A stretch of 15,570 nt of DNA from Chthonomonadales bacterium (GTDB lineage Bacteria; Armatimonadota; Chthonomonadetes; Chthonomonadales; CAJBBX01): contig JBBIPC010000011.1 in NCBI GenBank assembly GCA_037443035.1, positions 88,017 through 103,586 on the forward strand, read 5' to 3'. The notes beneath the pieces are model-generated. The model was not told the DNA's origin, searched no databases, and was given only the letters and a program-made list of their open reading frames with translations. Positions 89 to 11,934 of the stretch are shown one piece after another. Each line of letters opens with the position of its first letter. The stretch's first letter is position 1. Made by a program: the position numbers and the translations under genes.

Positions 89-3000
89 CTACGGCGCGAC
101 GACGTTGAACGTGCCCGTGGCCGACCCAGGCGCGATCCAAGCATCGCCGGCGAAGATCGCCATGAAGCTGTGGCTGCCAATGCTCAGACCAGTTGTGTCC
201 GGATAGGTGAACCACGCTATACCGGTCTCACCGGTGTCCGCTGTACCTACATCGGTGCCCTCTATCTGGAACGCAATGGTCTTCTGCGTCAGCCACTGGT
301 AATCGGGCAGACGGCGCACGTAGGCTCGAAGCACGGCGGGCTGACCCTGGCGGACGCTGCGTGCGTACGGCCAGATGTAGACCGGTGCTCGCTCCACGGT
401 GAGGCTGGCCGATGCCGACGAGGGACCGTATCCGGCGTCACCCGCGAATGCCGCACTCAGCGAACGCGTCCCGGCTCCCGTACCGTCGGGTATCCAGTAG
501 CGCAACAGAGCGCGCCCATTCGCATTGGTCGGTGCAGTTCCCACATCCGTGCCGTCCACAGCGAAACTCACGGTCCTGTTGGCAAGCGGTTTCGACCCAG
601 GATCGCTCCAGAGGTAGGCCTTCAAGTAGACGTCGCCACCGACAGTACCAGTGCGATCCGGCATGGACATCTTGGAACCACTTGTCGTTGCAGTCAGGGT
701 GGCGCTTCCGGAACCGCTCTGGAAGTCGGCGTCACCGGCGAACGAGAAGCCAAGGGGAACCGCGCCGACCGGCCCCGGTACGACGTACGGCAGGCTTGCT
801 CTTCCGCTCGCATCCGTATCTGCCTGGCCCACATCGGTTCCATTCACAGAAAACGTAACCGTCTTCCCCTCGAGCGGCGTCTGGCTGTTGAGCGTACGGA
901 CATAGCCGCGGAGGTCCACGGTCTCTCCGATGACGCCAGTACGATCCAGGCCGAACACGCGCACGGCGCCCTTCGCGAGGCTGAGGGTTCCTGATGCGGT
1001 CGAGCCCATGTAGGGCACGGATCCAACGAAAGTCGCGTCTACCGTCAGGTCGCCGACGTGGACCGACGGTGGTATGGAGTAGGTAACGGAGGCCACACCC
1101 GAAGCATCCGTCGTTCCGCTGCCGACAGGTGTGCCATCCACTGCGAAGTCCACAGTCATACCGGCGACGGGCGCGCCGCTATCCGTTTCTGTGAGTGTTG
1201 CCGACAGCGTCGCGCTACTATCTATGGCACCGGTGGCTGGCGAGACAACCAGCGCGGTGGCCTTGGCGAGCGACAGGAAGTCAACATCGTACCGGTGAGG
1301 ACCGACAACGACGGTGGCCACGTCAGGAGTGAAAGGATGACCGGGCTTGCTGGGTCGGACAAGGTGCGTACCGGCCAGGCAGTCGGCGAAGGAGTACTTG
1401 CCGTCCGCATCGGTAGTGGTGGTGCGATCTACGGTACCGATGTAGCTCAGCGACAGGCCCCAACCATCGAGCGTACCAGTGTCGGCAATCGCCAGATCTC
1501 GGATCCTCAGCTTCCATGTGCCCTGGACCGGCTTGCCGAAGAGCGCTGAGAGCGGTTCGGCCGGCCGTGTCTCGTCGGGATAGGTTGTGTAGATGTTATC
1601 TGCACTTCCGCCCGTTCGGTTGTGGAGACGCACTCGCGTGCCGTCCGGATGGATGAGGGAGACCTCCAGGTCACCGATGTAGGGATGGGTGATGGCGACC
1701 CAGACGTGAATGTCGGTCACGGTCCCTCCATCGGTCACTGTCAGTGGCGCCTCGATGCCGGTCGTGTTGTTGTCAGGGATGGCCGTGCCGGGCCAGTCTT
1801 CCATGCTAAGGTTCTTGTCGGCCGGGCTGGTGAGTGTCACGGTAACGTCGGGCAGTCCAGACGAACCGTGGCGTACCGTACCTGCAATGGTGAAGCTATT
1901 CAACGCGAAGTTGACGCCAACCTGATCGGGTCCTACCGTGACATCTTGATATGTCGGAGCGAAGGCCGAAGTGCCGCGGCTCGGCACCACTCGCCAGGTG
2001 CCGGGTTCGAGACCGGCCAGAGCGTATGTTCCATCGGAAGCCGTGGTGGCCGTCACGGTCAACGGCGTTTCTCTATAGACCTTGAGCGTCCACGAGACCA
2101 ATGTGCCTGTATCGAGGGCCGCGTTGTCGCTGACCCACAGTCGCCACGGGCCAGCCAGTGGCTTTCCGCGCAGCTTGTCGAGGCTCTCCGCCGGAGTGGT
2201 AAGTGTCGGATATGTGGTGACGATATTGTGCGCGCTGCCTCCGGTCATGTCATGCAGGAGGATCATGGTGCCGTCCGGGTGGACGAGGCCCACCTTCAGG
2301 TCACCGATCCATGTATGCTGGATATTCACCGACACCTCGACACTGCCCACTGTCCCGGAGTTCTTGATCTCGGCGACCGACTCAACGCCCGTCGGATCCC
2401 CGTCCGGGATGCTCAGGTTCGGGGTAAGGGATGCGGAGGCCCCGGCAAGCGTACCGGTGACAGTGACGCCCTCCATGGGTGCGCCGGAGTCGGTGACGCT
2501 ACCCGAGATAGTGAACTGCTGAAGGATGTAGATCTTCGCCGATGATGTGGCGGGGAAGGCCTCCTCGTCGCCAGCCCAGTCAGCCGTAACGACGATCTCA
2601 CCAGGCTGCGCGTCGGCCGGCACGGTGAACGGCACGCTGGCGACGCCATCGGCGTCGGTGACGGCCGAACCCGCATCGCTACCATCTGCTGTGAATGTGA
2701 TAGTCTTGCCTGCGACCGGAGCGCCGTCCAGCGCCCGAGTCAGTGTGGCCTTGAGCGTTACGTCCTGGCCCGGGTAGGCAACGTCATGCGCTACGCTGAG
2801 GTTCGTGATACGTGGGTCAATGAGAATGCCGCGGTCTACGAAGACCTGCGTGATGGCTTGTCCATCGGCACCTCCGTAGAGATCCTGATTAGCGGCGATG
2901 ATGGCCAACGCTCCGTCCTGGAAACTGGCCATCGGTGACAGGCGGAAATGGGACTCGAGGATGATGGTGTCGGCGCGCGTCTGGCCGACGATGCCACGTA

Positions 3001-4489
3001 TCTGCCAGAGACAGGCGCTCCAGATCTCGCCGTCAGCGTGCACCTCGCCCTGCATGTCCTCCGGGTAATGCTTCGTACTGTCCAGCCGGCGCAGGAATGC
3101 CGGATTGCCTGGGTTGTAGGAGGTTGCATCCCACGTCGCTACGTACACATCCCAATCGTGGCCATGGGGGCCGATGCCGGTGAACGTCGTCACCGCCCAG
3201 TAATCGCCGAAACCTTCCCCCATGGAACCGCCTTCGTGGGTCTGGCCCCAGCCTGGTACCTGGTTATCCTGGATGGCGTGCCCGTATTCGTGGAGGATGA
3301 CGTGAGCATCCTCGGCGTCATCCACGCCGCCGGTGCCCGTGGTAATGTTGCCAGTCCATGGCGAGTACCAGGCGTTGTCGTCGGTGGTGCCGTTTACGTC
3401 CATACCCTGGGGCCGATTGTTGACGTTCGTGAACCCCAGGCTCTGGATGTACCGCTGGTTGGTGTCAATGTGGTAGTAGCACATGACTTCCTCGAAGCGG
3501 TCATCCGAACGGAGGTAGTTGAACGACAAGGATGGCTCATTGGCTCGGGGCTGCTGGGCCGTGGGCTCCGTGGTGCAGAAGGGACCCTGGAGGTAACCCG
3601 TTCCGTCGAGGTCTTTGAGGGTGACCTGAACTCGCTCGTTATTCAGCGCAGGGTAGTCCGCATCGTCATTGTCCGTGAGATTGGCTTGTCCCGAGGTCAT
3701 GACAGGGTTCGGCACGAATACCCAGCCGTCGCCGTCCACGAATCGGGCCCGGTTCACGATGCGCAGGACCTTGTTCTCAGGAATGCTGACGAGCACCTCC
3801 CAGGCGCCTGCCGGTTTCCGCGTGTCCACATGGACATTCCAGACCAGAATAGGCTGAGCATCCTGAACGAACACGGCGGGCGAGGCGGTCGGTGGCACCG
3901 TCGGCGGAGCCTGCGGTTTCAGGGCTTCCAATGCCTGGGCGATGGCTTTGGCTGGATCACCTACGATCGCCGTCTTGAGCTCGCCCTTGATCGTAACCAG
4001 GTCAGCGTTGACAAGGACCACGGCGCCCTTCTTGTTCAGGTGCACGGACAGATAGCCGCCCAGCACAGGGTAGCCAGCAAGGACCTGACGGAAGCGCACA
4101 TGGGTACCCGTCAGGCTCTGACGACTCTCCAACGGCTGCAGCTCGCGCAGGTCGCTGGACAGCTCGAGGACCTTGGCGTTGGTTCGCAGGAACCGTACAG
4201 CAGCCTCTTCGGGCGTGCGCGCGCCTGCGATGGGCACCTCACCTCGGACGCGCACGACACGTCCCGTCGCCAGGTCTCGCTGGACCACGGCACCGCGCAC
4301 GACCCCTGCCTCCGGTGGGGATAGTTTGGGCGTAGGGCCAAACGGGGAAGCGAGAACATCCTTCGGTATGTCCACTGCAGCGCCTTTCTGACCCGCCTGG
4401 GGACCGCTAAGCGTTGCACCCGCAGCGAGCACGAGACAGGCAACGGCTACGGGCCAGAGGAGCCCAAGCCTCAGAGAAAAGCCTTTCAT
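89..4489 (-). CDS. Secreted modular zinc metallopeptidase (M36 fungalysin/M4 thermolysin-like): signal peptide, FTP+PepSY propeptide, catalytic domain, 2 proprotein-convertase P-domains, 2 carboxypeptidase-regulatory-like domains, 5 Ig-like repeats
   Basis: HEYGH zinc motif (3278-3292), downstream GEGFGD (ExxxD third ligand) and EVHADGEIW. FTP-like 'THVRFRQVLAGYPVLGG' and PepSY-like 'WEVLVS'. P-domain signatures 'IQHTWIGDLKVGLVHPDG' and 'ITHPYIGDLEVSLIHPDG'. Start moved from the ORF-track 4540 to ATG 4489 (MKGFSLRLGLLWPVAVACLVLA, signal-like), which is preceded by GGAAAGGA. Confidence 0.88.
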   Translation of the reverse strand: MKGFSLRLGLLWPVAVACLVLAAGATLSGPQAGQKGAAVDIPKDVLASPFGPTPKLSPPEAGVVRGAVVQRDLATGRVVRVRGEVPIAGARTPEEAAVRFLRTNAKVLELSSDLRELQPLESRQSLTGTHVRFRQVLAGYPVLGGYLSVHLNKKGAVVLVNADLVTIKGELKTAIVGDPAKAIAQALEALKPQAPPTVPPTASPAVFVQDAQPILVWNVHVDTRKPAGAWEVLVSIPENKVLRIVNRARFVDGDGWVFVPNPVMTSGQANLTDNDDADYPALNNERVQVTLKDLDGTGYLQGPFCTTEPTAQQPRANEPSLSFNYLRSDDRFEEVMCYYHIDTNQRYIQSLGFTNVNNRPQGMDVNGTTDDNAWYSPWTGNITTGTGGVDDAEDAHVILHEYGHAIQDNQVPGWGQTHEGGSMGEGFGDYWAVTTFTGIGPHGHDWDVYVATWDATSYNPGNPAFLRRLDSTKHYPEDMQGEVHADGEIWSACLWQIRGIVGQTRADTIILESHFRLSPMASFQDGALAIIAANQDLYGGADGQAITQVFVDRGILIDPRITNLSVAHDVAYPGQDVTLKATLTRALDGAPVAGKTITFTADGSDAGSAVTDADGVASVPFTVPADAQPGEIVVTADWAGDEEAFPATSSAKIYILQQFTISGSVTDSGAPMEGVTVTGTLAGASASLTPNLSIPDGDPTGVESVAEIKNSGTVGSVEVSVNIQHTWIGDLKVGLVHPDGTMILLHDMTGGSAHNIVTTYPTLTTPAESLDKLRGKPLAGPWRLWVSDNAALDTGTLVSWTLKVYRETPLTVTATTASDGTYALAGLEPGTWRVVPSRGTSAFAPTYQDVTVGPDQVGVNFALNSFTIAGTVRHGSSGLPDVTVTLTSPADKNLSMEDWPGTAIPDNNTTGIEAPLTVTDGGTVTDIHVWVAITHPYIGDLEVSLIHPDGTRVRLHNRTGGSADNIYTTYPDETRPAEPLSALFGKPVQGTWKLRIRDLAIADTGTLDGWGLSLSYIGTVDRTTTTDADGKYSFADCLAGTHLVRPSKPGHPFTPDVATVVVGPHRYDVDFLSLAKATALVVSPATGAIDSSATLSATLTETDSGAPVAGMTVDFAVDGTPVGSGTTDASGVASVTYSIPPSVHVGDLTVDATFVGSVPYMGSTASGTLSLAKGAVRVFGLDRTGVIGETVDLRGYVRTLNSQTPLEGKTVTFSVNGTDVGQADTDASGRASLPYVVPGPVGAVPLGFSFAGDADFQSGSGSATLTATTSGSKMSMPDRTGTVGGDVYLKAYLWSDPGSKPLANRTVSFAVDGTDVGTAPTNANGRALLRYWIPDGTGAGTRSLSAAFAGDAGYGPSSASASLTVERAPVYIWPYARSVRQGQPAVLRAYVRRLPDYQWLTQKTIAFQIEGTDVGTADTGETGIAWFTYPDTTGLSIGSHSFMAIFAGDAWIAPGSATGTFNVVAP

Positions 4490-4605
4490 GATGCGGTGTC
4501 CTTTCCATGCTGCATCTCGCAGCACCGATTCAGCGTGCAAGTACTGGTTGTTGTGTCCTGTGTGCGGACCCGCTCGGCGACGTCCGCATTTCGACGCACG
4601 GAACT

Positions 4606-5724
4606 TTACGTAAGATAGTCTCGCAGCTTGCGGCTTCGCCGAGGGCTGCGCAGCTTGCGTAACGCCTTGGCCTCTATCTGCCGGATTCGCTCCCGGGTCA
4701 GCCGGAAATGACGTCCGACTTCCTCGAGGGTACGGGACCGGCCGTCCTCGAGGCCGAACCGCATGATGAGCACATCCCGTTCGCGTTGTGTGAGCTGGTC
4801 GAGAATCTCCTCGATGCGCTCCCGGAGAATCAGGTGGGACGCCGCGTCCGCTGGAGTAACGGTCTCGTGGTCCTCCACGAAGTCCACCAGGGGACTCTCT
4901 TCCTCTTCTCCCACTGGGCCTTCGAGGGAGAGGGGCTCGGGCGCGATGCGCTTGATCTCCTCGACGCGCTCCACAGGCATCTCCAGCTCCCTCGCGAGCT
5001 CCTCGTCTGTGGGTTCACGGTGGAGTTCCTGCAGAAGGCGGCTGCTAGTGCGCAAGAGGCGATTGATCGTCTCCACCATATGGACTGGGATCCGTATGGT
5101 ACGGCCCTGGTCGGCGATGGCGCGGGTGATGGACTGGCGGATCCACCAGGTCGCGTAGGTGCTGAAGCGGTATCCTCTCGTGACATCGAACTTCTCGACC
5201 GCACGCATGAGGCCGATATTGCCCTCCTGGATGAGATCCGGGAAGGACATGCCACGTCCGGTGTAACGCTTGGCGATGCTAACCACGAGCCGCAGGTTCG
5301 CCTGGGTCAGCTCCTTCTTGGCCTGTTCGTCGCCTTGCTTAATCCGGTGGGCAAGTTCGACCTCCCGTTCCATGGTGAGCAGGGGGATACGGCCGATCTC
5401 GCGCAGCCACATGCGCACAGAATCGTCCACCGCCATGCTCTCGGCGGCCTTCTGGTCCTCGTCATCGCGCCGTCGGCGAGCCTTGTCAGAGACGCCATCT
5501 GCGGCGCCATCCTCCTCGACGGCATGCGGGTTACGGCTGCAGACTTCGATGCCCTCTTCTGCTAGGTACTCCAGGATTTCCTCGATCGCATCCGCGTACA
5601 CACCCTCCGGGGGCAACGCATCGTTGACCTCGTCGTATGTCACGTAGCCACGTTGTCTGCCTCGATCCAGGAGCCTTCGGAAAGCAGCAGAGCGTGTAAG
5701 CTCCTCGGTCGTCGTGCCACTCAC
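4606..5724 (-). CDS. rpoD: Primary RNA polymerase sigma-70 factor (RpoD/SigA, short form without a large non-conserved region)
   Basis: Region 1.1 ([13 protein letters not shown]), 1.2 ([11 protein letters not shown]), region 2 ([51 protein letters not shown]) and region 4 ([23 protein letters not shown]). GTG start with GGAGG upstream. Directly downstream of dnaG, as in the classical macromolecular synthesis operon. Confidence 0.96.
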
Positions 5725-5803: not shown

Positions 5804-7669
5804 TCAACTGCCAGACCCCTTCAAACGCGCCAGCAGCGCATGCAGCGCCTGCACCCGTTCCCGGTCGTCCGCCGTGAGTTCCGGCTTGGACCTGAGCAAC
5901 CGACTGATCTCAGCACTCACTGTCTCGGCTCTGCGGCTTCGCACGATGCGGATGGCATCCTGCAAGACCGCCTCGTCAATAGGTTCGTTCGTCAGAGCGA
6001 TCTGCGATTCCTGCAAGCGCCGGACGGCGGATTCTGCAACTTCGGGTAAGCACTCGGCACGGAGACGTCGCACAAGCTCAGCCTCATCTGCTGTAACGAG
6101 ATCCGGCCTTGCGAGCACGAACTCCAGAAGGGCCCGGTCGCCCGGGTCGAGCAGATCATCAGGATGAACGAGCCGAACTACGATGCTCCTGTGAGGCGGG
6201 ATCGCCAACGCGCGAACGATGAGCAGCTCCGCGGCCTGGACTCGCGAGCGCGGTGTCGGTCGCAGGTCTGTGCCTGCCGACTCGGACAGCCCGTCGCTGG
6301 TGTCGCCGGGTCCCGCGGCAGCGTCGGCAGGCCGGCCTCGTTGGAAAGGTTGTCGGGACGCGACCGTCGGCCTCGCCCTGCGGTGGGCGGCATCTTCGGC
6401 GTCCCGGTGAAGCTGCTGCTTGGCGACCCCTGGGCCATGGATACTGAGCGGATGGAGATGCCATACCTTTTCGATGTAGGCGTCCCTTTCCACCCGCGTC
6501 GGCACTGTTGCCAGGATAGCGATGATCTTGCGGAGGAGCGCCTGGCGACCGTGTTCTGTCTCGGTATCGGCCGAGGCGATGGCCAGGTCCAGCTCCATCT
6601 CCACTCGTGTGACAGCATCGGCAATAGCCCTGGCGAGACGCTCTGGGTGACCATCCCGCACGAGGGAGTCGGGATCCTCGCCTGCCGGTAGGCGAACGAT
6701 ACGGACTGCGACGGACTGCTGCTCCAGTTCGGTCGCTGCGCGGAGGGCTGCCTTGATACCAGCGGTATCAGCATCGTAGACGACGACCGCCGCAGGGGCA
6801 AGCCGTGCCAGGCGTCGAGCATGCTCCGCCGTGAAGGCAGTGCCAAGGCTCGCCACGGCATTCTCAAAGCCGTTCTGGTGCGCCGCGATAACGTCCATGT
6901 ATCCCTCCATGAGGAGGGTGCGGCCCTGATCGGCGATGGCCCGTCTGGCGAATGGTAGGGCGTATAGCAGGCGACTCTTCAGGAAAACGGGAGTCTCGCC
7001 AGTGTTGAGATACTTGGGTGGCTCATCGCCCATGGCGCGTCCACCGAAGCCGACAATGCGCATCTGCTCATCATGGATCGGGAACATGATGCGATTGCGG
7101 AAGGCGTCCACATGGCGGCCCCCCTCGCGTTGGTAGAGCAGACCTGCAGCGACAGCGATGCCAAGGTCTATCTTGCGGCCGGTGAGGTAAGCGGCCAGTC
7201 CGCGCCAATCGTCGGGTGCATAGCCGATCTGGAAGCGTTCGATGGTCTCGGGAAGCAAACGCCGACCGTGCAAGTACTCCCGGGCCGCCGGGGCGTGTTC
7301 GAGGCACCTGCGGAAGTACGTCGCGGCGACGGCGTTGGCCTCGTAGAGGGCTTCGCGTTGGCTTCGTTCCTTGGGGCTGGTGAACTTGCTTCGGAACTCC
7401 AGACCTGCCCTGCGCGCCAGATACTCTGCGGCCTCGACGAACGTCATGTTCTCGTGACGCTGGACGAACGTGAAGACGTCACCGGAGGCATCGCACCCGA
7501 AACACTTGAAGGTCTGGGTCACAGGATCCACGTTGAACGAGGGCGTTTTTTCTTGATGGAACGGGCAGAGACCCACCCAGTTGCGGCCACGGCGCTGTAA
7601 CTGGACCACCGAACCGATGACCTCGACGATGTCGTTGCGCGCCCTGATCTCTTCCTTGTCTGCTTCCAT
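5804..7669 (-). CDS. dnaG: DNA primase
   Basis: CHC2 zinc finger CPFH...CFGC, FRNRIMFPI, GFGGR, PKYLNT, TOPRIM EGYMDV and YDADTAG, and GEDPD. Start placed at ATG 7669 (MEADKEEIRARNDIVEVIG matches the usual DnaG N-terminus) rather than 7717. Confidence 0.96.
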   Translation of the reverse strand: MEADKEEIRARNDIVEVIGSVVQLQRRGRNWVGLCPFHQEKTPSFNVDPVTQTFKCFGCDASGDVFTFVQRHENMTFVEAAEYLARRAGLEFRSKFTSPKERSQREALYEANAVAATYFRRCLEHAPAAREYLHGRRLLPETIERFQIGYAPDDWRGLAAYLTGRKIDLGIAVAAGLLYQREGGRHVDAFRNRIMFPIHDEQMRIVGFGGRAMGDEPPKYLNTGETPVFLKSRLLYALPFARRAIADQGRTLLMEGYMDVIAAHQNGFENAVASLGTAFTAEHARRLARLAPAAVVVYDADTAGIKAALRAATELEQQSVAVRIVRLPAGEDPDSLVRDGHPERLARAIADAVTRVEMELDLAIASADTETEHGRQALLRKIIAILATVPTRVERDAYIEKVWHLHPLSIHGPGVAKQQLHRDAEDAAHRRARPTVASRQPFQRGRPADAAAGPGDTSDGLSESAGTDLRPTPRSRVQAAELLIVRALAIPPHRSIVVRLVHPDDLLDPGDRALLEFVLARPDLVTADEAELVRRLRAECLPEVAESAVRRLQESQIALTNEPIDEAVLQDAIRIVRSRRAETVSAEISRLLRSKPELTADDRERVQALHALLARLKGSGS

Positions 7670-7752: not shown

Positions 7753-8892
7753 TCACTCCGGCTTCTCGGGATTGGGCGGCACTGTCAGCCCGACGGTGAT
7801 ACCCACGACGCGCATCCCCTTGCCGCGGTCAGCGAGCTGGAAGGCAACGTTGGCCTTCTTGCTGTAGTCCAGCGTCCTCGTGTTGCCGCTGACGATCGTC
7901 TCCTCCGGGAAGCCGTAGATGGAGTAGATCTTGGCAGCCGTATCGCCGAGGCCAACACCATTCACGGTCCTTGCGCCAGCCTTGTAGCCGAAGGATTGGA
8001 TCTGGATGACACGTCCTTCGTTGTTGAACAGGAACACATGCGTATCGGTGCCCTTCTCATAGACCCAGGCAACCTCACCAGGCCCTGTCTCGATGGCGGT
8101 TCCAGCACTGGTCTGGGTCATCGTGCCGGTCGCGCCGCCCGGTGCGCCCGGCATGCCGCCCAACATAGGAGCGCCCATCATGCCGCCTGGCATACCGGGC
8201 GCTGTCGTTCCGCCTCGGAGTCCAGGCATGGGTATGCCGCCACCTGTGTCGCCCATGGCACCCATGGGAGCGCTCATGCCGCCCGCCATGCCCATGCCAC
8301 CCAGACCAGGCAAGCCGCGGCCGCCTGGGCTGGACATACCGCCCATAGCGCCGCGAGGCGGACCCATCATCATGCGACTCATGCCACGGCCCCCGGCACT
8401 GGACATTCCACCCATGGCTCCGGGCGGGGGACCCATCATCATGCTGCTCATGCCGCCCATCATCGGCGATCTCGGCGCACCCGCTGCACCACCTGCGCTG
8501 GACATACCGCCCATCATAGGGGCCCTGGGCGCACCCATGGCGCCGCCTGCACTGGACATTCCACCCATCATGGGGGTGGTCGGTGGCCCGGAGATGCCGC
8601 CTATGGAGGGCAGGCCCCGCGCACCCGTCATGCCGGCCATACCGAATGGCATGCCTGTGCCGCCCGGTGAGAACATCGCCGCGCCGCCGACGGTCGTGGT
8701 GGGAGTGACGCTCAGTTCTGCGGGTGGACCCGCTTCCACTCGCGTGGGTTGTCCATACTTAGCGAGGACGGCCTTCCATGTATCCAGTATGCGAACGCCG
8801 AGTAGGCTCTTGTCTGGTTTCGGAGCAGCGAGGGCTGTCGCAGACCAGATCACGCCCATTGCCAGCGTTGCTCCTGTTAGAATTCGTCGCAT
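7753..8892 (-). CDS. Secreted hypothetical protein with Met/Gly/Pro-rich low-complexity insert (paralog A)
   Basis: Signal peptide MRRILTGATLAMGVIWSATALA-A and RBS-like GGAGAGAGGA upstream. N- and C-terminal segments align with 8928-10049 (LLGVRI...G.PTRV; WVY...FN..GRVI.IQSFG.K; LGD; TLDYS.K; GKGMRVVGIT). Confidence 0.88.
   Translation of the reverse strand: MRRILTGATLAMGVIWSATALAAPKPDKSLLGVRILDTWKAVLAKYGQPTRVEAGPPAELSVTPTTTVGGAAMFSPGGTGMPFGMAGMTGARGLPSIGGISGPPTTPMMGGMSSAGGAMGAPRAPMMGGMSSAGGAAGAPRSPMMGGMSSMMMGPPPGAMGGMSSAGGRGMSRMMMGPPRGAMGGMSSPGGRGLPGLGGMGMAGGMSAPMGAMGDTGGGIPMPGLRGGTTAPGMPGGMMGAPMLGGMPGAPGGATGTMTQTSAGTAIETGPGEVAWVYEKGTDTHVFLFNNEGRVIQIQSFGYKAGARTVNGVGLGDTAAKIYSIYGFPEETIVSGNTRTLDYSKKANVAFQLADRGKGMRVVGITVGLTVPPNPEKPE
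8330..8568 (-). repeat. Five in-frame coding repeats (MGGMSS core) inside paralog A
   Basis: 17-bp units on the plus strand: CTGGACATACCGCCCAT at 8330 and 8498, CTGGACATTCCACCCAT at 8399 and 8552, variant CTGCTCATGCCGCCCAT at 8444. Spacings are 69, 45, 54 and 54 nt, all multiples of 3. Confidence 0.85.
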
Positions 8893-8927
8893 CAGAGGTT
8901 CTCCTCTCCGCAGGCCGTTGCCTGGCC

Positions 8928-10049
8928 CTAGCGTCGCCCCTCTGAAGGGGCTATGGTAATGCCGACCACCCGCATGCCTTTGCCGTCATGGCGGTCCAGC
9001 AGATCGAACACGACATGGAACTTCTGCGAATAATCGAGGGTTAGGGAATCGCCCTGCCGAATGGTCGTGCCTGCCCATCCGTACTTCTGATAAACCTTGG
9101 CCACCGGGTCACCGAGGGTAATCGATCGAGACGTCGCGCCCTTCCCCTTCGGCCCGAACGATTGGATGCGGATGACACGCCCGTCCTTGTTGAACATGAA
9201 GTGGATGGTCTGTTGGCCTCTCACGTAGACCCAGGTTTCCTTGACTTCTTCGCTCGGTACCGACGCCTGGACCTGCGACTGTGCGCCCACAGAGCCGCGC
9301 ATGCCCCCGATTCCAGGCATGCCCATGGGCCCGCCCGCAAGTCCTGCCATGAGGCCGGTGTCGCCAGCCGCGGCACTGGTGAGGCCCGTGCCGCCTCCGT
9401 ACATGGGAGGCATCATCATGCCGCCGGGACCTGGAACGCCAGCACCGCCCATGGGACCACGCATGGCGCCGCGTGCGCCTCCGCCGATGGGTGAGCCTGC
9501 ACCAATATCGTCTTCATCCTCGCTCTTACCACGGGCTCCGCCCATACCGCCCGGCATCGGCGGTCCACCGGCCATACCACCGACTGTGGGCATGCTTCGA
9601 CCACCGCCTCCCATGGGAGCGCTCATGCCCCCCATCATTCGGGGGTTGCCCATGGCGCCCATGCGCGGATTACCCATGCCGCCCATCATGGGGGCGCTCA
9701 TGCCGCCGGCGCTCATCATGCCACCCATCATGGGTGCACCAGGAGGTCCGGCCATGCCCATGGGGGCGCCCATCATGGGGCCGCCCGGTATGCCCATGCT
9801 CATGCCGCCCGTCTGGGCCCTTTGCATGTTGACGTTGATGGATCCCACTCCCATCTCGGGCGGCAGCGCCATGCCCGGCACGACCCGGGTCGGCTCGCCG
9901 TGTACTCTCAGCACGGTGGCGTAGTCGCGCCAAATGCGCACCCCCAGCAGCTCACGCTCAGCAGGTTGGGCAGCCTGAGACATGATCGCCGCTGTCAGGA
10001 ACCATGTCCCCAACATCCCGCCCAGCACGACGCGGATTGGTCGTAGCAT
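8928..10049 (-). CDS. Secreted hypothetical protein with Met/Gly/Pro-rich low-complexity insert (paralog B)
   Basis: Start moved to ATG 10049 (MLRPIRVVLGGMLGTWFLTAAIMSQA-A, signal-like), preceded by AGGAGG. Clear paralogy to 7753-8892 in the flanking folded segments. Confidence 0.88.
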   Translation of the reverse strand: MLRPIRVVLGGMLGTWFLTAAIMSQAAQPAERELLGVRIWRDYATVLRVHGEPTRVVPGMALPPEMGVGSINVNMQRAQTGGMSMGIPGGPMMGAPMGMAGPPGAPMMGGMMSAGGMSAPMMGGMGNPRMGAMGNPRMMGGMSAPMGGGGRSMPTVGGMAGGPPMPGGMGGARGKSEDEDDIGAGSPIGGGARGAMRGPMGGAGVPGPGGMMMPPMYGGGTGLTSAAAGDTGLMAGLAGGPMGMPGIGGMRGSVGAQSQVQASVPSEEVKETWVYVRGQQTIHFMFNKDGRVIRIQSFGPKGKGATSRSITLGDPVAKVYQKYGWAGTTIRQGDSLTLDYSQKFHVVFDLLDRHDGKGMRVVGITIAPSEGRR

Positions 10050-10161: not shown

Positions 10162-11934
10162 TCATTGTAGCACGGGAACTGGGTGCAATTCCCGTGAACG
10201 GGCGTGCAGTTCGCTGATCGTCACGAATGTGTACCCCCGCCGGCGCAGCTCGCCAATGATCCGTGGCAGCGCTGTGACGGTGGGTTGACGGCCATTGTGG
10301 AGGAGAACGATGGCACCCGGACGGACCCCCGCCAGAATATGCGCAGTCAACGGAGCGCTCCCCTCCAGTTCTTTCTGCTCACCGTTCACCGTCCACATGC
10401 AAGCTTGGAGTCCCAGGGATGCAGCAATCCGGCTGACACGCTCCGAGAGATTACCGCCTGGCGGTCTGAACCACCGCGGCGCGATGCCTGTCACGTGTTC
10501 GACGCAGGCATTCGTACGGACGAGCTCGTGCCGGATGGTCGCATCGCTGGCCCTGGCGAGGTTCGGATGCGAGAACGAATGGTTGCCGATCTCCATCCCA
10601 GCCTGCGCGAGTCGCATCACGAGATCCGGGCTTGCGGCAGCATGTCGCCCGATGACGAAGAACGTGGCTGGCACCTGCTCGCGGGTCAGGATGTCCAGGA
10701 TCTGCTCGGTGATGCCCGGTCGCGGACCGTCATCGAACGTCAGGGCAACAAGCTTCTGCTGAGGTGCCGCGCGCCAGAACGCCGGCTCGAAAACCGGCCT
10801 CGGACGAACGATGTGCTCGAGATCAGGCCAGACGGACGGATCCACTGCCAACGCCAGGCTCGACCACCGTCTGGCTGCGGATTCGTCACCGAGCTTGTGT
10901 GCGGCCTGCGCAGCCAACGCCGCGACGGACGCTCGACTCGGACGCAGCGCAAGCAGACGCCATAGCCGAGCTTCCGTCAGGCTGTCGTCCCGGTGCGCAG
11001 GTGCGCTGGCGTTCTGCGTGACGATCTCCTGACGCGTCGTCCGTATATCCTGTCCCGTGCCGTCGTAAGCAACGGTTTCAACAACGTGCACGCCGTTGGG
11101 GACTGTGGCGCTGTCCCACGCCAGTACGAAGGGACGCGAGTTCACCACGGCAAGGAACTTGCCATCCACGCGGAATGCAACGTAGCTCGCGTCGCTGTCG
11201 CCAGCACGCAACTGGACAGAGCCCGATACCGCGATACCCTTTGCTTTCTCCTGGACTGCCAGGAGGTTCCGTGGCAATGGCCGCAGTCCCCATCGGATGG
11301 GATGCGCTGGATCGAAGGTCATGAGGGCCGCTCGATAGTCTTCGTATCGCGCAACAGTGGGGTCGTTCAACACAACGGGTGCATCCTCCAGAACCCGCTG
11401 CCCATTCCCTTCGGCATGGGCGACGGCAAGGGCAATGGCCCGCCTGGCGGTATCCAACTCCATGGGAAGCGCGACACTTGCGGCGCCGCGCGAACCTCGC
11501 AGAAAGGCCACGTACTGACGTGCCAGCAAGCAGATGCCCGCGTCACCGTGCTTAGTGGCGGCTTCCAATGCAAGGTCGGCCTGCGCGAGATCGCCGGCTG
11601 CCAAACGGAGCAGGCCCATGCCGTAGCTGGCGATGGCGTTGTCCGGGACCAGGTTGTGCACTGCCTGGAACGCCTTCTCGCTACCGGATCTATCCCCGGT
11701 GAGCATCAGGATAGCTCCGGCCATGTTGTGAAGGAGCACACTCGACGGCATGGCCTGAAGACCTTGCCGCGTGCGCAATGCCGCTGCCTCGAAGTTCCCT
11801 CGTTCGGCTTGGTCCAGTGCTTCTCTCAGGACGGATCGTTCCGGATCGCTGTCCTGACGGGACTCCCGAGCCATGCTCGGCGTCAGCGCCACGCATAGGA
11901 CGCCCACCACCAGCAGAAGGTTACACTGCGTCAT
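10162..11934 (-). CDS. Secreted polysaccharide deacetylase family (CE4/NodB) protein with N-terminal TPR-like helices and an Ig-like domain
   Basis: Signal-like N-terminus. TPR-like 'AFQAVHNLVPDNAIASYGMGLL', Ig-like 'VAFRVDGK...WDSATVPNGVHVVETVAYD', and CE4 motifs LTFDDGP, GNHSFSH, FRPPGG, GAIVLLH. Confidence 0.88.
   Translation of the reverse strand: MTQCNLLLVVGVLCVALTPSMARESRQDSDPERSVLREALDQAERGNFEAAALRTRQGLQAMPSSVLLHNMAGAILMLTGDRSGSEKAFQAVHNLVPDNAIASYGMGLLRLAAGDLAQADLALEAATKHGDAGICLLARQYVAFLRGSRGAASVALPMELDTARRAIALAVAHAEGNGQRVLEDAPVVLNDPTVARYEDYRAALMTFDPAHPIRWGLRPLPRNLLAVQEKAKGIAVSGSVQLRAGDSDASYVAFRVDGKFLAVVNSRPFVLAWDSATVPNGVHVVETVAYDGTGQDIRTTRQEIVTQNASAPAHRDDSLTEARLWRLLALRPSRASVAALAAQAAHKLGDESAARRWSSLALAVDPSVWPDLEHIVRPRPVFEPAFWRAAPQQKLVALTFDDGPRPGITEQILDILTREQVPATFFVIGRHAAASPDLVMRLAQAGMEIGNHSFSHPNLARASDATIRHELVRTNACVEHVTGIAPRWFRPPGGNLSERVSRIAASLGLQACMWTVNGEQKELEGSAPLTAHILAGVRPGAIVLLHNGRQPTVTALPRIIGELRRRGYTFVTISELHARSRELHPVPVLQ

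Follow-up and report, generated by a model that had tools for sequence, protein, structure and literature searches.

A BLIP/yfeY-like protein family of Armatimonadota shares genome-specific loop peptides with PilN, PilO and PilP of the type IV pilus machine

The subject of this analysis is a pair of adjacent genes, A and B, in a 15,570-nucleotide stretch of contig JBBIPC010000011.1 (the window), from a genome that named relatives place in the Chthonomonadales, Armatimonadota. Their products carry long Gly/Pro loops, and within the same genome peptides of these loops recur in PilN, PilO, PilP and a further, unannotated protein, here called X (Table 1). Several described systems invite comparison. 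The BamE, SmpA_OmlA and OsmE proteins are single-repeat lipoproteins, and the CueO loop, PcoC and SilE combine conserved methionines with histidine or cysteine ligands. FG-nucleoporins form sticker-and-spacer meshes in which uncharged, glycine-rich disordered chains with spaced hydrophobic residues are carried by several subunits around a channel. In the portion of PMC11836899 that deals with these folds, ECOD unites the YjgB, CAP_assoc_N and YfeY groups with BLIP, SmpA_OmlA and the PepSY inhibitors, and BLIP-like families are mostly protein binders or inhibitors. MrpX, as presented in the relevant sections of PMC4436054, is a small, exported hypochlorite sponge of about 20% methionine and 44% charged residues, co-transcribed with yedYZ. 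The NLR-associated amyloid motifs (BASS, HET-s-like) are short, tied to different proteins and thought to be templated like-with-like, according to the parts of bioRxiv 10.1101/2020.01.06.895854 and PMC12261475 that concern them.

In both A and B, a folded domain is split by a long insert dominated by glycine, methionine, proline, alanine and serine, as an earlier note made from the sequence alone had proposed. The insert of A comprises 218 residues (G65 M37 P29 A26 S18, together 80%) and that of B 212 residues (G64 M37 P26 A22 S13, together 76%); glycine makes up about 30% and proline 12-13% of each, and both are nearly uncharged. Residue counts agree with the 37 or so methionines per insert, the absence of cysteine and histidine and the scarcity of aromatic residues given in that note (two Phe and no Cys, His, Trp or Tyr in A; one Tyr and no Cys, His, Trp or Phe in B). 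Methionine thus reaches 17% in the inserts, versus 2.4% across the 2811 open reading frames (ORFs) called in the window's genome. Identity between A and B is 47% across 110 residues of their C-terminal parts and 47-50% across 26-30 residues of their N-terminal segments. The inserts had been described as similar in length and methionine content without aligning residue by residue; the similarity stands, but the short peptides AGGMSAPM, GGMSAPMG and APMMGGM are common to both. A 54-nt tandem repeat in insert A holds three copies of MMGGM (at 8449, 8503 and 8557), and insert B has three more (at 9624, 9675 and 9717). Export of both proteins is predicted from their N-termini, which, read by eye, show a basic start, a hydrophobic core and an AxA motif. 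Beyond the signal peptide, no 19-residue segment of either protein has a hydrophobicity above 0.9, and neither contains a cysteine, hence no lipobox.

A scan of the window's own genome detected Met/Gly stretches like the A and B inserts in PilN, PilO, PilP and X. The motif MMGGM occurs nine times in this genome, three times each in A and B, twice in X and once in PilP, and the longest peptide common to insert B and X is MMGGMSAP. Gly/Pro loops are carried by PilN, PilO and PilP in 41 pil operons, and the Met, Phe and Tyr contents of these loops track those of the same-genome family insert (rho 0.78, 0.48 and 0.46, n=39); inside organism family f14, methionine content switches jointly. When exact 6-mers are compared between family inserts and pil operons, the own genome ranks first in 14 of 39 cases (about one expected), with mean sharing of 0.027 for the own genome, 0.007 for the same organism family, 0.003 for other families and 0.0028 for shuffled inserts. 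Permutation within organism families, partner by partner, gives p values for sharing with the family insert of 0.0002 for PilN (n=38), 0.0008 for PilP (n=36), 0.023 for PilO (n=34) and 0.0002 for X (n=24, with the own genome first in 13). The STN protein (p 0.31, n=34) and the secretin (p 1.0, n=26) show no sharing, though they are encoded in the same operon as PilN, PilO and PilP. Identical tracts reach 39 residues between the family and X in G028, 27 residues between the family and X in G014, and 14 residues between the family and PilN in G065. Selection on composition only, as previously suggested, does not agree with exact peptides common to unrelated proteins of one genome. In the window's genome, the STN and secretin loops are of a different, Gly/Tyr/Phe type.

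The presence of one same-genome peptide, or dialect, in the family, PilN, PilO, PilP and X may well cause these proteins to adhere to one another in the periplasm. A and B would be periplasmic proteins in which a long Gly/Pro loop, predicted to be disordered, projects from the tandem BLIP/yfeY-like domain; the loop bears a genome-specific repeated peptide found likewise in PilN, PilO, PilP and X, and matching loops may bind one another, so that A/B and X would be tethered to the pilus scaffold in the periplasm. Tethering by such like-with-like contacts is the reading tentatively preferred here. Co-evolution of the motif also suggests that A/B and X may be accessories of the pilus machine, an assignment that still falls somewhat short of probable. 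It is conceivable, if more weakly, that the same contacts form a local mesh or condensate. On the broadest view, which is offered with reserve, unrelated proteins (PilN/O/P, the BLIP-like family and X) would form a periplasmic mesh through mutual recognition by a genome-private dialect in their disordered loops, one that drifts from lineage to lineage yet is re-synchronised between unlinked genes by conversion and selection, and the family and X would be two new phylum-wide pilus accessory factors.

The same sharing and selection data would also fit a peptide tag read by one co-evolving partner per genome, whether a chaperone, a protease, an export factor, a modifying enzyme or a folded domain of A, B or X. 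The binding and inhibitory habits of BLIP-like families (PMC11836899, in the portion cited above) are in keeping with such a reader, as is the cup-shaped beta domain of X, which resembles lipid-transfer proteins (the N-terminal barrel of lipovitellin/MTP, Z 13.5; LmcA by Foldseek). However, dialects such as MGMPG, GGFPG and YGPYSGPP have no fixed modifiable residue in common, the structural model of A docks no segment of the insert confidently, and no reader gene was identified. A tag is considered an unlikely explanation.

A single query detected protein X in 24 of 30 genomes, and a profile did so in 25 of 29, some of them weakly. Its loop sits before the last strand of the cup, and in 9 of 11 loci it precedes a gene that we take, from its sequence features, to be tatC-like. 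In the distant organism family f23, X and tatC lie divergently beside the deacetylase, family gene, dnaG and rpoD in three of five loci, which is independent evidence for a connection between X and the family. Two further proteins were considered as regular carriers of the dialect and rejected. Protein Y is present in 29 of 30 genomes and its composition tracks that of the family insert (rho 0.69 for Met, 0.73 for Tyr), but sharing is not significant (p 0.079, n=23); the same holds for protein Z (p 0.08, n=20), presumably a PQQ-type propeller-like plus Ig-like protein, which is present in 25 of 30 genomes. The motif was nonetheless seen in these two proteins in G133 and G225, for Z only in G133 among the genomes scanned. 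A pairing of the NLR amyloid-signalling type was also set aside, the carriers being the family gene, PilN/O/P and X, joined now and then by two further envelope genes. Among other pilus and secretion proteins, many PilM-like proteins of Armatimonadota gave split matches, in two pieces within open frames of 480-660 residues, which suggests an internal insert, and a type II secretion GspC-like protein and secretin of the window's genome (G000:C6:152004-156372; L135:6317-10373) contain Met/Gly/Pro stretches.

Several observations weigh against tethering by matched loops. In 25 of the 39 genomes the own genome does not rank first in 6-mer sharing, several genomes (families f11 and f20) have no common 6-mer at all, and the window's own pair ranks only eighth of 39, with longest common peptides of 6-8 residues. 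Four family members (P0114, P0120, P0126 and P0147) have inserts of 27-36 residues, most of these inserts being acidic, and are natural loop-less controls. In the loci read, the family gene never lies beside the pil operon, and the deacetylase upstream of B fails as a universal partner beyond the Chthonomonadales and f23. For whole-genome scans of eight genomes, one degenerate pattern per genome was chosen after the motifs had been seen, and of the 90 matches (family gene 39, pilNOP 26, X 20, Y 2, Z 3, elsewhere none) those in the family and most of those in the Pil proteins arise by construction; the informative parts, which speak for tethering, are the recurrence of X and the absence of matches elsewhere. 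Reversed patterns gave no match except two in G118. At the DNA level, adjacent paralog inserts are homogenised, with 298 of 489 codons identical (61% vs 36% expected; 58 of 63 in G028), and codon identity is slightly above chance for family-Pil peptides (42-44% vs 38%, z 2.3-3.8) and Pil-X peptides (49% vs 43%, z 2.6). This excess in adjacent and unlinked pairs indicates that DNA copying accounts for part of the likeness. The insert is under purifying selection, with ratios of nonsynonymous to synonymous substitution (dN/dS) of 0.03-0.33 between close relatives (14 of 15 pairs computable), compared to 0.01-0.13 for the fold (12 computable), but low ratios could stem from composition alone.

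A serious rival follows from composition-level selection combined with conversion, in which the loops are tolerant spacers (filler or an elastic tether) selected only for length and Gly/Pro/hydrophobic composition, and the exact matches are left by occasional gene conversion between GC-rich tracts that resemble one another and play no part in partner recognition. The plain conversion between adjacent paralogs, the small codon excess in unlinked pairs, the weak or absent sharing in many genomes and the wide range of insert lengths all fit such spacers. Among 11 pairs from organism family f3, the longest common peptide averages 19 residues for same-genome paralogs vs 5.6 for orthologs in different genomes. 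Tolerant spacers do not readily explain the unlinked family-X tracts: common peptides of the family and X have 268 of 667 codons identical (40% vs 38% expected, z 1.1), the 27-residue tract has 11 identical codons, and the 39-residue tract, a biased sample in that it was picked as the longest, has 18 identical codons, 21 silent differences and no replacement difference. Nor do they account for the STN and secretin loops staying out of the sharing despite their operon, or for the absence of the dialect motif from the remaining Gly-rich ORFs in a list of 58 from the window's genome. Spacers are considered somewhat unlikely. Under the preferred reading of mutually binding loops, gene conversion would seed a new repeat and spread it among the loops, and protein-level selection would retain the versions that match.

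The methionine content of the inserts, which the earlier note had taken as the basis of a Cu(I)/Ag(I) or oxidant sponge, was surveyed in 242 sequences, reduced to 185 distinct sequences with both flanking motifs and 183 measurable inserts by removing fragments, duplicates and two rows that had been parsed wrongly; the kin that remain are non-independent. An insert is present in every full-length relative parsed, with a length of 27-232 residues (median 130), and glycine plus proline make up at least 30% in 174 of the 183. Its methionine fraction is not kept: methionine reaches at least 10% in 91 inserts, falls below 5% in 67 and below 2% in 43, and trades off against Phe plus Tyr (rho -0.64), which replace it in many relatives. 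Only 11 histidines and one cysteine occur among 23,904 insert residues.

The methionine-rich window inserts, the many inserts with at least 10% methionine and the single MsrA of the window's genome (L328:1354-2028), which is unlinked and has a signal-peptide-like start, would suit an exported sponge recycled by methionine sulfoxide reductase. The metal or oxidant reading fails, however, because methionine is unconserved and swapped for Phe or Tyr. MsrP/YedY (PF00174) had no match in the window's genome, which is 100% complete, whereas controls match in 9 of 14, and the recurring neighbours identified for the family gene are dnaG, rpoD, the deacetylase and X. The family was accordingly placed neither with MrpX-type oxidant sponges, since methionine richness is not kept across it, nor in the Met/His-rich copper or silver binder class, in which methionine would not be exchangeable. 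A sponge is highly improbable as the function of these loops and would be at best a side benefit in lineages with a methionine dialect.

An AlphaFold2 model of A, built on a 24-row alignment, has a predicted local distance difference test (pLDDT) score of about 90 at residues 31-50 and 271-370 and mostly below 50 in the insert; both flanks pack as one domain, and the insert takes the place of a short loop in repeat 1. The top structural match is YjgB DUF4309 (4ygt, Z 11.4), followed by CAP_assoc_N (4ifa and 4h0a, Z 10.9 and 10.5) and YfeY DUF1131 (2qzb, Z 10.7); these four matches span 120-135 residues with root-mean-square deviations of 3.4-5.2 and 12-16% identity, rank five drops to Z 7.6, and the Foldseek top four agree (4h0a, E 6.7e-4). 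The BLIP-like protein 3d4e (Z 6.7) is alike in fold alone. The model thereby assigns A/B to the BLIP/yfeY-like superfamily (ECOD; Pfam clan PepSY), which has tandem helix-plus-sheet repeats. No Pfam or NCBIfam model reaches its cut-off on A or B, and membership in CAP_assoc_N or DUF4309 was rejected: CAP_assoc_N scores 13.7-14.4 bits against a cut-off of 29.3, and the two models match 7 of 30 and 4 of 30 family members, respectively, only at E 0.008-0.01 or worse. A sequence search against solved structures gave a best E of 0.19, to a BamE. The ESM Atlas clusters nearest to A are unnamed Armatimonadota proteins, a short-insert relative gave leads to DUF7738, DUF4309 and BLIP/PepSY-like proteins, and the named homologues found are Armatimonadota hypothetical proteins.

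Matches to the family were detected in 56 of 61 relatives and in 270 of 301 Armatimonadota genomes, one or two per genome, and a second profile recovered it in 24 of 29 genomes picked for weak or absent matches. One locus outside the phylum (L062, the sole such locus among 31) was excluded as a member, at E 3e-4 with half of the query covered. Gene order was read in one set of 31 loci and in 40 phylum-wide loci. The family gene is immediately followed by dnaG in 32 of the 40 and in 19 of the 31 (25 with room), and a deacetylase lies directly upstream in 26 of the 31 (28 with room) and in 4 of the 40; in f23 the order deacetylase, family gene, dnaG, rpoD holds in five of five loci. A near-universal family of one or two copies, fixed before dnaG-rpoD, could act on its own, independently of the pilus, as a BamE-like regulator or a regulator of cell-wall enzymes that is co-expressed with dnaG-rpoD and whose loops match those of PilN/O/P only through a common crowded periplasmic layer. 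Repeat 1 superposes on OsmE, BamE and SmpA_OmlA (Z 6.2-7.0 over 58-59 residues; 6.5-7.0 for BamE and OsmE). Such a regulator leaves the exact peptide matching and the exclusion of the secretin unexplained and is very unlikely; A/B have a tandem repeat and no cysteine, unlike BamE, and membership in BamE/SmpA_OmlA was rejected on the same grounds.

With tethering by matched loops still preferred, it is possible, if doubtful, that the folded domain is an adaptor or inhibitor of an envelope enzyme and so couples the pilus machine to remodelling of the wall or envelope. Superfamily habits suggest that role, and the best candidate client, the TPR-Ig-deacetylase, is suggested by adjacency in two lineages only. 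The window's deacetylase has TFDDGP, HSFSH and RPPG motifs and an Ig domain like that of X. An obligate heteromer of A and B, also proposed in the earlier note, does not agree with the distribution: most genomes have a single copy, and gene pairs evolved on three or more occasions. In a tree built from 102 columns of 89 C-terminal domains, with many forks left open, the sequences group by organism family, with separate duplications for the window's pair, f3 and G076, and the A/B-type pairing is therefore optional. One 590-residue protein (P0112) has two complete family modules fused in tandem, which hints at dimer-like use. What remains of the earlier interpretation is a real, undescribed, predicted exported family, for which an assembly-type role is still the best reading.

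Other features of the loci are as follows. A GGAGG sequence resembling a ribosome-binding site precedes the ATG of gene B; a promoter scan of the locus gave no sites, and terminator-like sites occur only at chance level. A 1483-residue exported M36/M4-like metallopeptidase with two P-domains and Ig repeats (window positions 89-4540, minus strand) follows rpoD only in the closest relatives. Four loci (L364, L365, L366 and L370, families f19 and f26) contain two divergently oriented family genes, and the place of dnaG after them is taken by a gene for a membrane-anchored product of 440-460 residues; the N-termini of these products are similar.

Table 1. Coordinates of the genes, protein segments and partner loci discussed in the text (plain ranges are window positions)
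Feature	Position	Strand	Remark
Gene A, tandem BLIP/yfeY-like domain split by Gly/Met/Pro insert, predicted signal peptide	7753..8892	-	379 aa
A residues 29-53, first strand-helix-strand of repeat 1 (LLGVRI...KYGQP)	8734..8808	-	pLDDT about 90
A insert, residues 54-271	8080..8733	-	predicted disordered
A residues 272-370, remainder of repeat 1 and entire repeat 2	7783..8079	-	
Gene B, paralog, architecture as A	8928..10049	-	373 aa
B residues 33-57, N-segment of repeat 1	9879..9953	-	
B insert, residues 58-269	9243..9878	-	
B residues 270-367, folded C-terminal part	8949..9242	-	
pilM-N-O-P-STN-secretin operon, window's genome	G000:C7:101859-108680 (L133:10860-17680)	-	
Protein X, Big_7 Ig domain and beta cup with Gly/Met loop	G000:C6:99060-100748 (L134:4076-5749)	+	
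Protein Y, PKD domain, long Gly-rich insert	G000:C3:123924-125426 (L136)		
Protein Z, propeller-like and Ig-like	G000:C17:25175-26995; L262:3800-5839		
dnaG, directly downstream of A	5804..7669	-	context, outside mechanism
rpoD, after dnaG	4606..5724	-	context
TPR-Ig(Big_7)-NodB/CE4 deacetylase, upstream of B	10162..11934	-	590 aa, candidate client

The fold of A/B is of a known kind; the novelty is a dialect common to several proteins. Loops of low complexity are commonly regarded as linkers whose exact sequence does not matter, and here peptides of up to 39 residues are identical on non-homologous, unlinked envelope proteins. Since such peptides are kept within a genome and change between genomes, they offer a sequence-only route for assigning unknown proteins to a machine, and they point to two unannotated, near-universal Armatimonadota proteins as candidate partners of the type IV pilus scaffold. 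Cognate and foreign dialects would constitute a natural swap system for the sequence-specific assembly of disordered periplasmic chains and, if the tethering reading is true, a self-matching assembly code for the bacterial envelope. In the open-access literature, to which the search was confined (subscription papers being outside its scope), nothing was found on the family or on within-genome motif sharing.

Among described systems, the YjgB, CAP_assoc_N and YfeY proteins have the same exported, two-repeat alpha/beta fold, but at 12-16% identity they lack the 27-232-residue Gly/Pro loop that splits repeat 1 in the A/B family. BamE, SmpA_OmlA and OsmE superpose on repeat 1 alone, whereas A/B have two repeats, no lipobox cysteine and a giant loop. 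MrpX of the MrpX-YedYZ (MsrPQ) system is similarly exported and comparable in methionine share; unlike it, the A/B inserts are nearly uncharged and lie within a folded domain, many relatives have lost the methionine, and YedY is without a match in the genome. The type IVa PilMNOPQ machine is represented in the window's genome by the pilM-N-O-P-STN-secretin operon, with the motif on PilN, PilO and PilP, but the searches run revealed no likeness of A/B or X to any pilus component, and their genes lie outside the operon. The amyloid signalling motifs, in the portions of the papers cited above, come closest, among printed examples, to a motif that is tied to several kinds of protein; the motifs of the A/B family differ in being Gly/Pro-rich, repeated, predicted periplasmic, genome-variable and carried on housekeeping envelope proteins. 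In FG-nucleoporins, likewise, more than one subunit carries disordered, Gly-rich chains that are uncharged and have hydrophobic residues at intervals; there is no homology between the two, the sticker here is Met, Phe or Tyr according to lineage, and cohesion of the loops is putative.

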